In this document: positions 1 to 4,906 of the stretch, piece after piece
Position numbering within the stretch: the first letter of the stretch is position 1
How the letters are laid out: each line of letters starts with the position of its first letter
Source of the DNA: a virus
Lineage: Duplodnaviria; Heunggongvirae; Uroviricota; Caudoviricetes
Direction: 5' to 3' (one strand)
Length of the DNA: 4,906 bases
Virus record (IMG/VR): IMGVR_UViG_2657245112_000028
Program-made: the position numbers and the translations under genes
Notes under the pieces: model-generated
Told to the model about the DNA's origin: nothing
Databases searched by the model: none
Seen by the model: only the letters and a program-made list of their open reading frames with translations

Positions 1-38
1 TATAAATTCTGATTAGCCAGGTAACACAGTGTTATGAC

Positions 39-66
39 AGCCCGCCGGTTCAGGCGGGCTTTTTTG
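39..66 (+). terminator. Rho-independent terminator ending the upstream gene
   Basis: GC-rich inverted repeat agcccgcc (39-46) / ggcgggct (53-60) with a 6-nt loop, immediately followed by a T-run (61-65). Sits just upstream of the stf ribosome-binding site. Confidence 0.75.
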
Positions 67-76
67 TGGGGTGAAT

Positions 77-3037
77 ATGGCAGTAAAGATTTCAGGTGTA
101 CTGAAAGACGGCACAGGAAAACCGGTACAGAACTGCACAATCCAGCTGAAAGCAAAACGTAACAGTACCACGGTGGTGGTGAACACGCTGGCCTCAGAAA
201 ATCCGGATGAAGCCGGGCGTTACAGCATGGACGTTGAGTACGGTCAGTACAGCGTTATTCTGTTGGTGGAAGGCTTCCCGCCGTCACATGCCAGGACCAT
301 CACCGTGTATGAAGATTCCCGACCCGGTACGCTGAATGATTTTCTCGGTGCCATGACGGAGGATGATGCCCGTCCTGAGGCACTGCGCCGTTTTGAACTG
401 ATGGTGGAAGAGGTGGCGCGTAACGCGTCCGCGGTGGCACAGAACACGGCAGCCGCGAAGAAGTCAGCCAGCGATGCCAGCACATCAGCCCGTGAGGCGG
501 CAACCCATGCGACTGATGCTGCAGGCTCAGCACGCGCAGCCAGCACGTCAGCCGGACAGGCCGCGTCGTCGGCTCAGTCAGCGTCTTCCAGCGCAGGAAC
601 GGCATCAACAAAGGCCACTGAAGCATCAAAAAGTGCTGCCGCTGCAGAGTCCTCAAAAAGCGCGGCGGCCACCAGTGCCGCTGCGGCGAAAACGTCAGAA
701 ACGAATGCGGCAGCGTCACAACAATCAGCAGCCACTTCTGCATCCACCGCGACCACGAAAGCGTCAGAAGCTGCCACCTCAGCCCGGGATGCGTCGGCTT
801 CAAAAGAAGCGGCAAAATCATCAGAAACGAACGCATCATCAAGCGCCAGTAGTGCCGCTTCCTCGGCAACGGCGGCAGGAAATTCCGCGAAGGCGGCAAA
901 AACGTCCGAGACGAACGCTAAGTCTTCTGAGACGGCAGCGGGACAGAGCGCCTCAGCTGCGGCAGGCTCAAAAACAGCGGCTGCGTCGTCTGCCAGTGCC
1001 GCGTCAACAAGTGCCGGGCAGGCCTCAGCCAGTGCCACCGCCGCCGGAAAATCGGCAGAAAGCGCCGCATCATCCGCTTCAACAGCCACAACGAAGGCTG
1101 GCGAAGCCACTGAACAGGCCAGCGCAGCAGCGAGTTCTGCTTCCGCAGCGAAGACATCCGAAACGAACGCGAAAGCGTCGGAAACCAGCGCAGAATCCTC
1201 AAAAACGGCTGCCGCATCGTCAGCCAGTTCGGCGGCGTCATCGGCATCATCGGCGTCTGCTTCAAAAGATGAGGCGACCAGACAGGCGTCAGCAGCGAAG
1301 AGCAGCGCCACGACGGCATCCACGAAGGCGACAGAGGCAGCTGGCAGTGCGACGGCGGCAGCTCAGAGCAAAAGTACGGCGGAATCCGCGGCAACGCGCG
1401 CCGAGACAGCAGCTAAACGGGCAGAGGATATTGCATCCGCCGTGGCGCTTGAGGATGCGAGCACGACGAAAAAGGGGATAGTACAGCTCAGCAGTGCGAC
1501 TAACAGCACTTCCGAGTCACTGGCGGCAACGCCAAAAGCCGTTAAGGCCGCGTATGACCTGGCTAACGGGAAATACACCGCACAGGATGCAACGACAGCA
1601 CAGAAAGGGATCGTTCAGCTCAGCAGCGCGACCAACAGCACATCTGAAATGCTGGCGGCAACGCCAAAGTCGGTAAAGGCAGCCTATGACCTTGCTAACG
1701 GGAAATATACCGCTCAGGACGCTACGACAGCACAAAAAGGAATTGTCCAGCTCAGTAGTGCAACCAACAGCGCATCTGAAACGCTTGCCGAGACACCGAA
1801 AGCAGTGAAAGCAGCTAATGATAATGCGAATGGTCGGGTACCTTCTGCCCGTAAGGTGAATGGTAAGGCGCTTTCAGCGGATATAACACTGACGCCGAAA
1901 GATATTGGTACGCTTAACTCAACAACAATGTCATTCAGCGGTGGTGCTGGTTGGTTCAAATTAGCAACGGTAACCATGCCACAGGCGAGTTCTGTTGTTT
2001 CAATTACGTTGATTGGTGGCGCGGGATTTAACGTGGGGTCACCTCAACAGGCAGGTATATCTGAACTTGTTTTGCGTGCAGGTAATGGTAATCCGAAGGG
2101 GATTACTGGTGCTTTATGGCAGCGCACATCGACAGGGTTTACAAATTTTGCCTGGGTCAATACATCTGGTGATACTTACGATATTTACGTTGCAATCGGA
2201 AATTATGCGACTGGTGTAAATATTCAATGGGATTATACCAGTAATGCCAGCGTGACGATTCATACGTCACCAGCATATTCTGCTAATAAGCCGGAAGGGT
2301 TAACGGACGGTACAGTTTATTCACTCTATACGCCATCAGAGCAGTTTTATCCGCCTGGCGCACCAATCCCGTGGCCATCAGATACCGTTCCGTCTGGCTA
2401 TGCCCTGATGCAGGGGCAGACTTTTGACAAATCTGCATACCCGAAACTTGCAGCCGCTTATCCGTCAGGCGTGATCCCTGATATGCGTGGCTGGACGATT
2501 AAGGGCAAACCCGCCAGTGGTCGTGCCGTATTGTCTCAGGAACAGGACGGCATTAAATCGCACACCCACAGCGCCAGCGCATCCAGTACGGATTTGGGGA
2601 CGAAAACCACATCGTCGTTTGATTACGGCACTAAATCCACGAATAACACCGGGGCTCATACGCACAGTCTGAGCGGCTCTACAAGCTCGGCCGGAGCACA
2701 CTCGCACGTTGATGGTCGCAGGTTTAATACAAGCACTTTTAAAGACACCTATCAGTATGGTTCTACAGCTGTCGGAAGTAACTCATACCAGGTACAAGGG
2801 GCGGTTGGTCTGGGCATTGGCACGATGGCGAATACGAACTCTGCTGGCGCGCATACCCACTCACTGTCCGGCACTGCTGCAAGCGCAGGTGCACACGCAC
2901 ATACTGTCGGTATTGGTGCTCATACGCACTCCGTTGCGATTGGCTCACATGGACACACCATCACCGTTAACGCTGCTGGTAACGCGGAAAACACCGTCAA
3001 AAACATCGCATTTAACTATATTGTGAGGCTTGCATAA
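77..3037 (+). CDS. stf: Side tail fibre protein (lambda Stf family), 986 aa from ATG 77 (ORF track opens at GTG 71)
   Basis: N-terminus [20 protein letters not shown]... matches the lambda/lambdoid Stf N-terminus as I recall it. Purine-rich SD-like gtggggtg lies upstream of ATG 77. Architecture is N-terminal attachment domain, A/S/T-rich shaft, three tandem 44-aa fibre repeats, then a His-x-His-rich C-terminal tip. Stop TAA at 3035-3037 overlaps the tfa start (TAATG). Confidence 0.92.
422..1440 (+). repeat. Low-complexity Ala/Ser/Thr-rich shaft region of stf with recurring K(T/S)SETNA quasi-repeats
   Basis: About 340 codons dominated by A/S/T. The motif (A)KTSETNA(K/A)(S/A)S recurs at about 691-720, 826-850, 898-930 and 1150-1180. 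The GC-rich codon bias produces long spurious ORFs in other frames. Confidence 0.7.
1469..1820 (+). repeat. Three tandem in-frame 132-bp (44-aa) phage tail fibre repeats inside stf
   Basis: [12 protein letters not shown](T/A)SE(S/M/T)LA(A/E)TPK(A/S)[21 protein letters not shown] occurs three times. The K-G codons sit at 1472, 1604 and 1736, giving an exact 132-bp period. The third copy diverges after AVKAA. Resembles the 'phage tail fibre repeat' family (from memory). Confidence 0.85.
2561..2956 (+). other. His-x-His motif cluster (7 motifs) in the stf C-terminal tip, a putative metal-binding needle domain
   Basis: HTH 2561-2569, HTH 2657-2665, HSH 2699-2707, HTH 2852-2860, HAH 2894-2902, HTH 2921-2929, HGH 2948-2956, mostly within G-A-H-T-H-S contexts. 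Confidence 0.6.
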
Positions 3038-3450
3038 TGGCATTCAGAATGAGTGAACAAGCACGGACCATAAAAATTTATAATCTGCTGGCCGGAACTA
3101 ATGAATTTATTGGTGAAGGTGATGCATATATTCCGCCTCATACAGGTCTGCCAGCAAACAGTACCGATATTGCACCACCAGATATTCCTGCTGGCTTTGT
3201 GGCTGTTTTCAACAGTGATGAGGCATCGTGGCATCTCGTTGAAGACCATCGGGGTAAAACGGTTTATGACGTAGCGTCAGGGGACGCGTTATTTATTTCT
3301 GAACTCGGTCCGTTACCGGAAAATGTTACCTGGTTATCGCCGGAAGGGGAGTTTCAGAAGTGGAACGGCACAGCCTGGGTGAAAGATGCAGAAGCAGAAA
3401 AACTGTTCCGGATCCGAGAGGCGGAAGAAATAAAAAACAGCCTGATGTAG
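3037..3450 (+). CDS. tfa: Tail fibre assembly protein Tfa, N-terminal 137 aa, ended by an in-frame amber (TAG) codon
   Basis: [93 protein letters not shown]... is near-identical to lambda-type Tfa as I recall it. The start ATG overlaps the stf stop (translational coupling). TAG at 3448-3450 falls where lambda-type Tfa has CAG (Gln). Confidence 0.85.
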
Positions 3451-3621
3451 GTAGCCAGTGAGCATATTGCGCCACTTCAGGATGCTGTAGATCTGGAAAT
3501 CGCAACGGAGGAAGAAACCTCATTGCTGGAAGCCTGGAAAAAGTATCGGGTGTTGCTGAACCGTGTTGATACATCAACTGCACCTGATATTGAGTGGCCT
3601 ACGAACCCTGTCAGGGAGTAA
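3451..3621 (+). pseudogene. tfa: In-frame 3' remainder of tfa downstream of the amber codon, encoding the conserved Tfa C-terminal domain
   Basis: Same frame as 3037-3450, open for 56 codons to TAA at 3619-3621. Encodes [56 protein letters not shown], the conserved C-terminal region of Tfa proteins. No plausible internal restart codon with an RBS. Confidence 0.7.
3456..3576 (+). repeat. Direct repeat copy A (tfa 3' segment), about 89% identical to 4505-4625
   Basis: Ungapped alignment of 3456-3576 with 4505-4625 (offset 1049 bp) gives about 13 mismatches in 121 bp, with an identical ~40-bp core (caggatgctgtagatctggaaatcgcaacggaggaagaaa). Confidence 0.9.
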
Positions 3622-3635
3622 TCATTGGGATTATG

Positions 3636-3684
3636 CCGCAGCACGTCTTAAGCAAGAACGTGCTGCGGTTGGATGCTATTTTTT
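3636..3684. terminator. Stem-loop between convergent tfa (+) and methyltransferase (-) genes; possible bidirectional terminator
   Basis: Perfect 10-bp inverted repeat ccgcagcacg (3636-3645) / cgtgctgcgg (3659-3668) with a 13-nt loop. On the + strand a T-run (3679-3684) follows after a 10-nt gap. The arms are flanked by A-rich sequence on the minus strand. Confidence 0.45.
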
Positions 3685-4344
3685 CCCTGAAGCGGAAAAC
3701 ATTACTACAGTACCTTGAACCTTGGTTTTAACATTCTCGAAATGCTCTGAGAGTATATGTGTTAAGCCTTCTTCGGAATCTTTTGTGTTTGAAAAGATGC
3801 CTTTCTGATTGTAAATGCGCATCAGTTTTTGACCGAAGCTATTGTGCACAACTCCATCGCCAAGAATTGTGGCTCCGTATAGAGTTCCATCGTCAGTTAA
3901 GGCCTGCGCCGCATTGCGTATTACACAGCTTTTTGTAGATATATTTCCAGGCAGGCAGTGAAGAAGGTAAAACATGGAAATGGAATCAAATTGACCATGT
4001 AACGCCGCGGGATAAGGTTCAAAAACATCATGGCTAATTTTATGTTTAATTTTTGATTCCCCAGCCCTTGTAGATGCCGCGTTCAGGCTAGCTTCGTTCA
4101 AATCCATTAAAGATATCAGACTACTCTCAGGTACGTGAGTAAGGTAAAACCCAGTTCCAACACCAATATCCAGATGGTTGTTACCTAAATGTTCCAGAAA
4201 GTGTGGAAGAAGGTGTTCCTTTGTAGGACATCCCCATGCAAGCCGATTTGATACTCCCAAAACCCACCAGTCATAAAGCTTTAGGGTAAGTGGTGTGTAA
4301 ATTTTAGCCCCATCATCTGTGTTTTTTTTCATTAATTTCACCAT
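3676..4344 (-). CDS. Class I SAM-dependent methyltransferase-like protein (222 aa; possibly 218 aa from the ATG at 4330-4332)
   Basis: Rossmann methyltransferase motifs in canonical order: motif I HLDIGVGTG (aa 57-65); acidic post-I residue in LMDLNE about 17 aa later; motif II-like FDSISMFYLLHCLP; motif III-like LTDDGTLYG. Lies in a visibly AT-rich island, convergent with tfa. A GGTGA SD-like element sits 5 nt upstream of the second ATG (M5). Confidence 0.65.
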   Translation of the reverse strand: MVKLMKKNTDDGAKIYTPLTLKLYDWWVLGVSNRLAWGCPTKEHLLPHFLEHLGNNHLDIGVGTGFYLTHVPESSLISLMDLNEASLNAASTRAGESKIKHKISHDVFEPYPAALHGQFDSISMFYLLHCLPGNISTKSCVIRNAAQALTDDGTLYGATILGDGVVHNSFGQKLMRIYNQKGIFSNTKDSEEGLTHILSEHFENVKTKVQGTVVMFSASGKK

Positions 4345-4400
4345 GTTATAGTTTTATTTGTGAATTAAATCAATTATGGCGATGAATTACAAGGGGTTAA
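4345..4400. promoter_or_regulatory. AT-rich divergent intergenic region, likely holding promoter(s) for the methyltransferase (-) and tfa-like ORF (+); includes the AAGGGG RBS for ORF 4401
   Basis: 56 bp of very AT-rich sequence between divergently oriented ORFs. AAGGGG at 4391-4396 lies 4 nt upstream of ATG 4401. No -35/-10 pair could be assigned with confidence. Confidence 0.3.
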
Positions 4401-4733
4401 ATGCTGCCGCAGCATAGCGATATTGAAATAGCCTGGTATGCTTCGATACAACAGGAGCCGAATGGCTGGAAGACCGTCACCACACAGTTCTACATCCAGG
4501 AATTCAGTGAGTATATTGCGCCACTGCAGGATGCTGTAGATCTGGAAATCGCAACGGAGGAAGAAAGATCGTTGCTGGAGGCATGGAATAAATATCGGGT
4601 ATTGTTGAATCGAGTTGATACATCAGTAGCTCTGGGTATGAAGCTGTTTGTAACTCATGTTACAGTAACAGTCATTACTATCTCGAAGGTGCAAAATGCT
4701 GAGAGATCCCCTCATAATTTCCCCAAAGCGTAA
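4401..4733 (+). CDS. Tfa-like remnant/chimeric ORF (110 aa): 5'-truncated divergent tail fibre assembly gene with an unrelated C-terminal tail
   Basis: Residues 37-75 ([38 protein letters not shown]) repeat the Tfa C-terminal domain seen at 3466-3576. An in-frame TAA lies immediately upstream of the ATG, so the N-terminal part of any ancestral gene is missing. After RVDTS the sequence diverges from the TAPDIEWP ending. Has a good RBS. Confidence 0.45.
4505..4625 (+). repeat. Direct repeat copy B (tfa-like 3' segment), partner of 3456-3576
   Basis: See copy A. Same orientation (direct, not inverted). The two copies bracket the methyltransferase island. Confidence 0.9.
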
Positions 4734-4906
4734 CCATGTGTGAATAAATTTTGAGCTAGTAGGGTTGCAGCCACGAGTAAGTCTTCCCTTGTTATTGTGT
4801 AGCCAGAATGCCGCAAAACTTCCATGCCTAAGCGAACTGTTGAGAGTACGTTTCGATTTCTGACTGTGTTAGCCTGGAAGTGCTTGTCCCAACCTTGTTT
4901 CTGAGC
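4712..4906 (-). CDS. Possible 3' end of an unidentified minus-strand gene running off the window (C-terminal 64 aa: ...[44 protein letters not shown])
   Basis: Minus-strand frame is open for 64 codons from the window edge to a TGA (complement of 4712-4714), while all + frames here are full of stops. No recognisable family, and the start is outside the window. Confidence 0.3.

Follow-up and report, generated by a model that had tools for sequence, protein, structure and literature searches.

The C-terminal portion of the side tail fibre protein Stf (amino acids ~758–988) is, with a probability that we put at about 90%, a module of the T4 gp37 type, in which seven metal sites would lie along the axis of the trimer and the tip would determine the choice of receptor. 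In the window, i.e. the whole 4906-nucleotide stretch of DNA analysed here, a lambdoid prophage is represented by its tail-fibre end. In its ORF list stf (71..3037, plus strand) encodes 988 amino acids from a GTG codon at 71; RefSeq WP_000279167.1 is the same protein with its start at the ATG codon at nt 77.

The ORF translation of Stf contains seven HxH motifs: HTH at amino acid 831 (nt 2561–2569), HTH at 863 (2657–2665), HSH at 877 (2699–2707), HTH at 928 (2852–2860), HAH at 942 (2894–2902), HTH at 951 (2921–2929) and HGH at 960 (2948–2956). The original prediction had named seven such motifs, and their order and outer coordinates (2561–2956, amino acids 831–962) match the translation exactly. 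It had also spread them along the last ~140 residues, mostly in a GAHTHS context. The clustering near the C-terminus holds, although the motifs span 132 residues and lie within the last 158; likewise GAHxH is the context of five of the seven, but the exact string GAHTHS occurs only three times, and the remaining two motifs read KSHTHS and GSHGHT. Stf has 17 histidines in total, 14 of them inside HxH motifs, and every histidine beyond residue 731 belongs to one.

Relationship of the Stf C-terminus to the T4 gp37 tip

When the last 255 residues of Stf were compared with all PDB sequences using phmmer, the receptor-binding tip of T4 gp37 (2XGF) was matched with E = 7.8e-88; the match pairs residues 13–255 of the query (243 residues) with residues 15–242 of the chain and places each HxH opposite an HxH. 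This structure is reportedly the one described by Bartual et al. in 2010. The sole other PDB match of this query was the short tail fibre 9cuy (E = 3e-8), which was limited to the collar, the domain that gp12-like short fibres share with Stf. By tblastn, identity to T4 records was 64.5–64.9% across 95% of the query, and the module was present in 402 phage records, including those of T4-like myophages, lambda, P2-like phages and Yersinia phages; a protein search returned 1344 relatives.

For pairwise alignment, gp37 was taken from a T4 genome and its residues were numbered back from the C-terminus, a numbering validated by the published iron ligands H929 and H931, by Y932 and by G964 before the fourth motif (PMC6957217). 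The 14 histidines of the Stf motifs align in this comparison to gp37 His883/885, 915/917, 929/931, 966/968, 980/982, 989/991 and 998/1000. Spacing from one HxH to the next is 32, 14, 51, 14, 9 and 9 residues in Stf versus 32, 14, 37, 14, 9 and 9 in T4, the difference being limited to the interval that contains the tip (51 versus 37). At the sequence level, the earlier suggestion that Stf ends in a gp37-type tip is therefore strongly backed by the homology to 2XGF, with 14/14 histidines aligned.

Published limits for the domains of gp37 place the stem at residues 882–931 and 960–1009 and the tip at 932–959 (PMC6957217). The corresponding segments of Stf, all on the plus strand, begin with the first part of the collar or knob (amino acids 758–829; 2342..2557), equivalent to gp37 811–881 with 83% identity and one gap. 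The descending arm of the needle stem (amino acids 830–879; 2558..2707) carries HxH 1–3 and is equivalent to gp37 882–931 with 82% identity; the ascending arm (amino acids 922–971; 2834..2983) carries HxH 4–7 and is equivalent to gp37 960–1009 with 70% identity. Both arms are 50 residues long and ungapped against gp37. The C-terminal strand that leads back to the collar (amino acids 972–988; 2984..3034) is identical to gp37 1010–1026 at 16 of 17 positions (94%), again ungapped, and it is kept in 8/8 aligned phage fibres, in seven of them as identical sequence and in YenM12 as MNYIVRLA.

Pfam models were matched along the protein. The prophage tail-fibre N-terminal domain (PF08400, phage_tail_N) was found at amino acids 3–136 with 235 bits, and for amino acids 3–96 the PDB entry 9e7m (94 residues, 'Tail fiber protein') was a match at E = 1.7e-50; we take this entry to be the N-terminus of Ur-lambda Stf. 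Three Phage_fiber_2 repeats were also found in Stf, along with Collar (PF07484) at amino acids 763–810 with 45 bits, and Phage_fiber (PF03335), a GxHxH-containing 14-mer whose best stretch is amino acids 858–871; at 26.2 bits Stf passes the whole-protein gathering cutoff of this model (20 bits).

Conservation across homologues follows the histidines. In an alignment of 20 homologues, 10 of the 14 show no variation and the remaining four reach at least 90% conservation, with neighbouring residues varying around them, while the stretch between HxH 3 and HxH 4 has no consensus and the tip is hypervariable. Of 96 homologues whose needle is complete, 86 combine a single FDYGTK repeat with seven HxH, the arrangement of T4 and of the Stf studied here, and six combine two FDYGTK repeats with eight HxH, the arrangement of lambda; the number of HxH equals six plus the number of FDYGTK repeats in 92 of the 96. 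An added repeat on the down-strand is paired with an added IGAHxH on the up-strand, and this paired lengthening is what would be predicted of a hairpin-like needle that grows only by whole layers.

Among the closest known systems are T4 gp37 and Ur-lambda Stf/Tfa. With the T4 tip, Stf shares the collar, the predicted six-stranded needle, the C-terminal strand (70–94% identity by segment) and the register of seven HxH, together with a gp38-related chaperone gene downstream; it differs in that gp37 forms the long fibre of a myophage, whereas Stf belongs to the side fibre of a lambda-type siphophage, and in that the chaperone is gp38 in T4 but of the Tfa type here. With Ur-lambda it shares the N-terminal tail-attachment domain, the J-lom-stf-tfa gene order and a nearly identical Tfa, and the C-terminal modules are 71% identical. 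Lambda Stf nevertheless has one extra needle layer and another tip sequence, its shaft is shorter than that of the Stf described here, and its tfa lacks the amber truncation seen in the window.

tfa and the state of the prophage

Directly downstream of stf lies tfa (3037..3621, plus strand), which encodes a tail fibre assembly chaperone (Pfam Caudo_TAP). The original prediction had invoked chaperones of the Tfa/gp38 type, and this agrees with the gene order and with homology to T4 gp38, residues 12–132 of the window Tfa aligning with gp38 1–119 at 34% identity (E = 1e-17). However, tfa is interrupted by an amber codon at nt 3448–3450, where codon 138 of 194 has changed from CAG to TAG (the Gln138 codon is CAG in both PhiR26_1 and lambda), and RefSeq lists the gene as a pseudogene with an 'internal stop'. 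The predicted product has 137 rather than 194 residues; it is without the C-terminal part that is conserved in the Caudo_TAP family, but retains the entire gp38-homologous part. As judged from its sequence, the function of the truncated Tfa is doubtful. Only two of 585 nucleotides differ between this gene and the intact tfa of PhiR26_1, one of them creating the amber stop, and from this small difference the decay would appear to be recent.

Further downstream the window contains a gene for a SAM-dependent methyltransferase (3676..4344, minus strand) and a C-terminal Tfa fragment, tfaX-like (4401..4733), both assigned from the ORF list and Pfam. Nucleotides 1–4698 are 100% identical to the chromosomes of E. 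coli O111:H11, O103 and related STEC, and at least 80% of the window is present in 547 of 5426 complete genomes. In the RefSeq annotation of the identical O111:H11 locus the gene order is tail genes L, C40 peptidase (pseudogene), tail assembly protein, J, lom, stf, tfa (pseudogene), methyltransferase and partial tfa, which includes the J-lom-stf-tfa order of the lambdoid tail module; beyond the partial tfa, the O111 locus continues with ompT, envY, ybcH and nfrA, marking the DLP12 prophage site.

The amber codon in tfa, together with the stop inside the C40 peptidase tail gene, marks the prophage as defective, and because of the broken tfa and the other pseudogenes of this degraded prophage the Stf fibre is probably not assembled by it. 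An alternative to a working needle is that the locus is a decaying remnant, in which the HxH motifs are inherited, Stf is unfolded or unused and the motifs have no present function. We consider this a genuine possibility, though the lesser one. The CAG-to-TAG change at codon 138 of tfa speaks for it, as do the stop in the upstream peptidase gene (at the position of lambda gpK), the location of the prophage at the DLP12 site beside ompT, envY and nfrA, and an IS4-like element that adjoins the tfaX-like fragment in the window. Against this, the 988-residue stf ORF is intact with 14/14 HxH histidines retained, the truncated Tfa keeps its full gp38-homologous part, and STEC genomes hold up to 39–45 places that match the window, which suggests that other Stf/Tfa-bearing prophages in STEC could provide Tfa in trans or recombine with the cassette described below. 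Whether or not the locus is a remnant concerns the present use of the fibre and not the identity of the module.

The proposed metal-stabilised needle

As a gp37-type module, the Stf C-terminus would comprise a collar domain, a small tip at the distal end and a needle, long and thin, in which three chains are intertwined. Every chain would run down the needle with HxH 1–3, pass through the tip and return with HxH 4–7. Each of seven levels would then have a single metal ion on the three-fold axis, bound octahedrally by the six imidazoles that the HxH motifs of the three chains turn inwards. These ions would serve as internal rivets or registration points for the trimer with no contact to the receptor; receptor choice would be set by the 42-residue tip on an exchanged DNA cassette. 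An AlphaFold2 monomer model of amino acids 734–988 (20-sequence alignment) was uninformative, with a mean pLDDT of 42.9, a pTM of 0.14 and almost no secondary structure, as expected of an obligately intertwined trimer.

The precedent for such sites is structural and genetic. The gp37 needle contains seven coordinated iron atoms along its length, and the substitutions H929A and H931A are lethal, giving no plaque formation (PMC6957217). Octahedral six-His sites built from three symmetry-related HxH are described for gp37, P2 gpV, the phi92 spike and R-type pyocin fibres, and a role proposed for them in folding is to bring the three chains into register and stabilise them, which the authors state is not experimentally proven (PMC6116203). 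A similar folding role in Stf would be in keeping with this proposal. Proteins with a single such site, namely the P2 gpV and phi92 spikes and R1/R2 pyocin fibres (with Fe) and T4 gp12 (with Zn), have in common with the needle the three HxH on a three-fold axis forming an octahedral six-His site (PMC6116203), but where the needle has a column of seven sites they possess just one, the folds around that site are different and there is no sequence homology across the needle. The Stf trimer would be expected to bind seven axial metal ions, with iron anticipated.

The same fold might be built around another metal in place of iron (zinc or nickel, for instance), or its sites might be only partly occupied; we consider this unlikely. 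Sequence alone cannot specify the metal, and the HxH site of T4 gp12 was modelled with Zn, albeit after refolding with a zinc salt (PMC6116203). All of the natively purified six-His HxH sites cited (gp37, P2 gpV, phi92 spike and R1/R2 pyocin fibres), however, held Fe (PMC6116203), and the stem of Stf is 70–82% identical to that of gp37 with the same ligand set. Far less credible still is that the HxH cluster is a compositional or repeat artefact, i.e. a His-rich low-complexity tail of no structural meaning: although A, S, G and T abound in the last 200 residues of Stf and short DNA repeats encode GAHTH, such an origin was ruled out by residue shuffling (seven or more HxH in 0/50,000 shuffles of the last 158 residues, with a mean of 1.15 and a maximum of 6, and in 0/20,000 shuffles of whole Stf, with a mean of 0.27 and a maximum of 4), by histidines that are invariant in homologues while their neighbours vary, and by the match to the 2XGF crystal structure (E = 1e-87). 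The GAHTH-encoding repeats are just 12–15 nt long and 74–93% alike, so that the motif is kept at the protein level.

An exchanged tip cassette within a constant scaffold

Between the two arms of the stem lies the distal tip subdomain (amino acids 880–921, 42 residues; 2708..2833, plus strand), presumably the receptor-contacting end of Stf. Alignment with the 28-residue T4 tip (932–959), which contains the OmpC/LPS contacts, found no homology, giving eight identities and 20 gap columns.

The tip sits on a stretch of DNA that has been exchanged among related fibres. Comparison of stf with PhiR26_1, mEp332 and SPF_0923 showed 93–100% DNA identity on both sides (from nt ~2360) and 40–77% identity inside a segment at ~2660–2890 on the plus strand, encoding the distal stem and tip (amino acids ~866–940), and megablast matches were broken into two pieces around it. 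The bounds of this cassette fall just after the coding box of HxH 2 and just before that of HxH 5; spanning this interval, it would carry the distal stem, the tip and with them the receptor specificity. Tétart and Krisch reportedly described how T-even adhesins recombine at their His-box motifs, with which the position of these bounds agrees. The Stf proteins of PhiR26_1, mEp332 and SPF_0923 and the fibres of E. coli prophages (clusters P0001–P0019) have the same architecture but differing tip cassettes. PhiR26_1 has a related tip of equal length, as well as an intact tfa, and its tip cassette is 86% identical at the protein level, the others being less so. Of 5426 complete E. coli genomes, 263 contained the tip DNA of Stf.

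The receptor of T4 is OmpC, and the OmpC/LPS-binding residues of the gp37 tip are I933–Y953 (PMC6957217); the receptor of lambda Stf is likewise OmpC (PMC12617516). As the tip of Stf cannot be aligned with that of T4, residues I933–Y953 are without counterparts in Stf, and the receptor assignment of T4 cannot be transferred to a non-homologous tip. The lambda tip likewise lacks homology to that of Stf. We tentatively propose, at somewhat under even odds, that the 42-residue tip on its cassette is a distinct receptor-specificity module found in ~5% of the complete genomes of E. coli, chiefly those of STEC, that it recognises a receptor unlike the OmpC/LPS site of T4 and lambda, and that the HxH-coding boxes act as the recombination joints. 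The literature yielded no receptor for the related tips of phages PhiR26_1 and mEp332, the papers retrieved being unrelated ones on a Pseudomonas PhiR26 and on qPCR, and a paper on Gifsy-1 Stf held nothing on the needle. The mismatch between the tips of Stf and T4 bears on receptor specificity and not on membership of the needle fold.

A gp37-type needle in Stf is an already known feature. Similarity between the C-terminus of lambda Stf and the gp37 tip has long been established and has been restated (PMC12617516), the HxH iron sites of T4 are published and their conservation in lambda has been described (PMC11705849), Pfam holds a model of the repeat (PF03335) and the RefSeq protein occurs in hundreds of genomes. 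Our result thus confirms a standard gp37/Stf needle at the end of an STEC prophage fibre and has little value as a discovery. What the alignment does provide is a separation of the constant scaffold (collar, stem and HxH motifs) from the exchangeable cassette, which is information for the construction of chimeric Stf proteins in phage or cosmid delivery to STEC. Since tfa is broken in this copy, expression work with it must supply an intact Tfa.

Needle layers and a mosaic cassette in Stf

Among homologous needles the number of FDYGTK repeats and the number of His-x-His (HxH) motifs rise together, the HxH count being equal to six plus the FDYGTK count in 92 of the 96 complete needles from the homologous fibre proteins (P0001–P0120) and phage loci (L001–L008). 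The lambda fibre and some T-even fibres have one additional needle layer. In the fibres of P2-like and Yersinia phages the HxH motifs number only five. DNA identity of stf to several lambdoid phage stf genes falls from 93–100% on either side of window positions 2660–2890 to 40–77% within them. This mosaic cassette lies between the sequences encoding HxH-2 and HxH-5 (motifs numbered from the N-terminus), which suggests that the distal stem and tip of Stf have been exchanged via recombination at the conserved His-box sequences.

Stf N-terminus and shaft

Residues 3–96 of Stf (window 71–358) match a PDB chain of 94 amino acids entitled 'Tail fiber protein' (9e7m/9mgh; E = 1.7e-50), which we take to be Ur-lambda Stf's N-terminal collar, and the region of Phage_fiber_2 repeats matches fibre protein S of phage Mu (E ~1e-7; 5yvq/8ju3). 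The shaft segment (amino acids ~120–455; window ~430–1440) is long, of low complexity and rich in Ala, Ser and Thr; it gives rise to many long but spurious open reading frames, out of frame with stf or antisense to it (e.g. 474..1481 + and 574..1323 –), none of which is a gene.

Lesions in tail genes

The chaperone gene tfa (window 3037–3621, +) carries a CAG-to-TAG amber stop at codon 138 of 194 (3448–3450); RefSeq marks it as a pseudogene, noting an internal stop. It differs from the intact tfa of temperate phage PhiR26_1 at only 2 of 585 nucleotides. A C40 family peptidase tail gene in the lambda gpK position, upstream of the window in the same prophage (L009, 556–1299), also has an internal stop, so at least two tail genes of the prophage are defective.

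Methyltransferase, tfaX-like fragment and IS element

Downstream lies a class I SAM-dependent methyltransferase gene (window 3676–4344, –; phrog_2132, unknown function), the PhiR26_1 counterpart of which is annotated as YbcY-like, followed by a C-terminal Tfa fragment (tfaX-like; 4401–4733, +). This is also the arrangement of ybcY–tfaX in the K-12 prophage DLP12. In its last ~220 bases (~4686–4906) the window matches the terminus of an IS4-like (ISVsa5/IS10-type) element, and the match of otherwise identical STEC genomes to the window ends at nucleotide 4698; together these results indicate an IS insertion adjoining or within the tfaX-like fragment in this strain.
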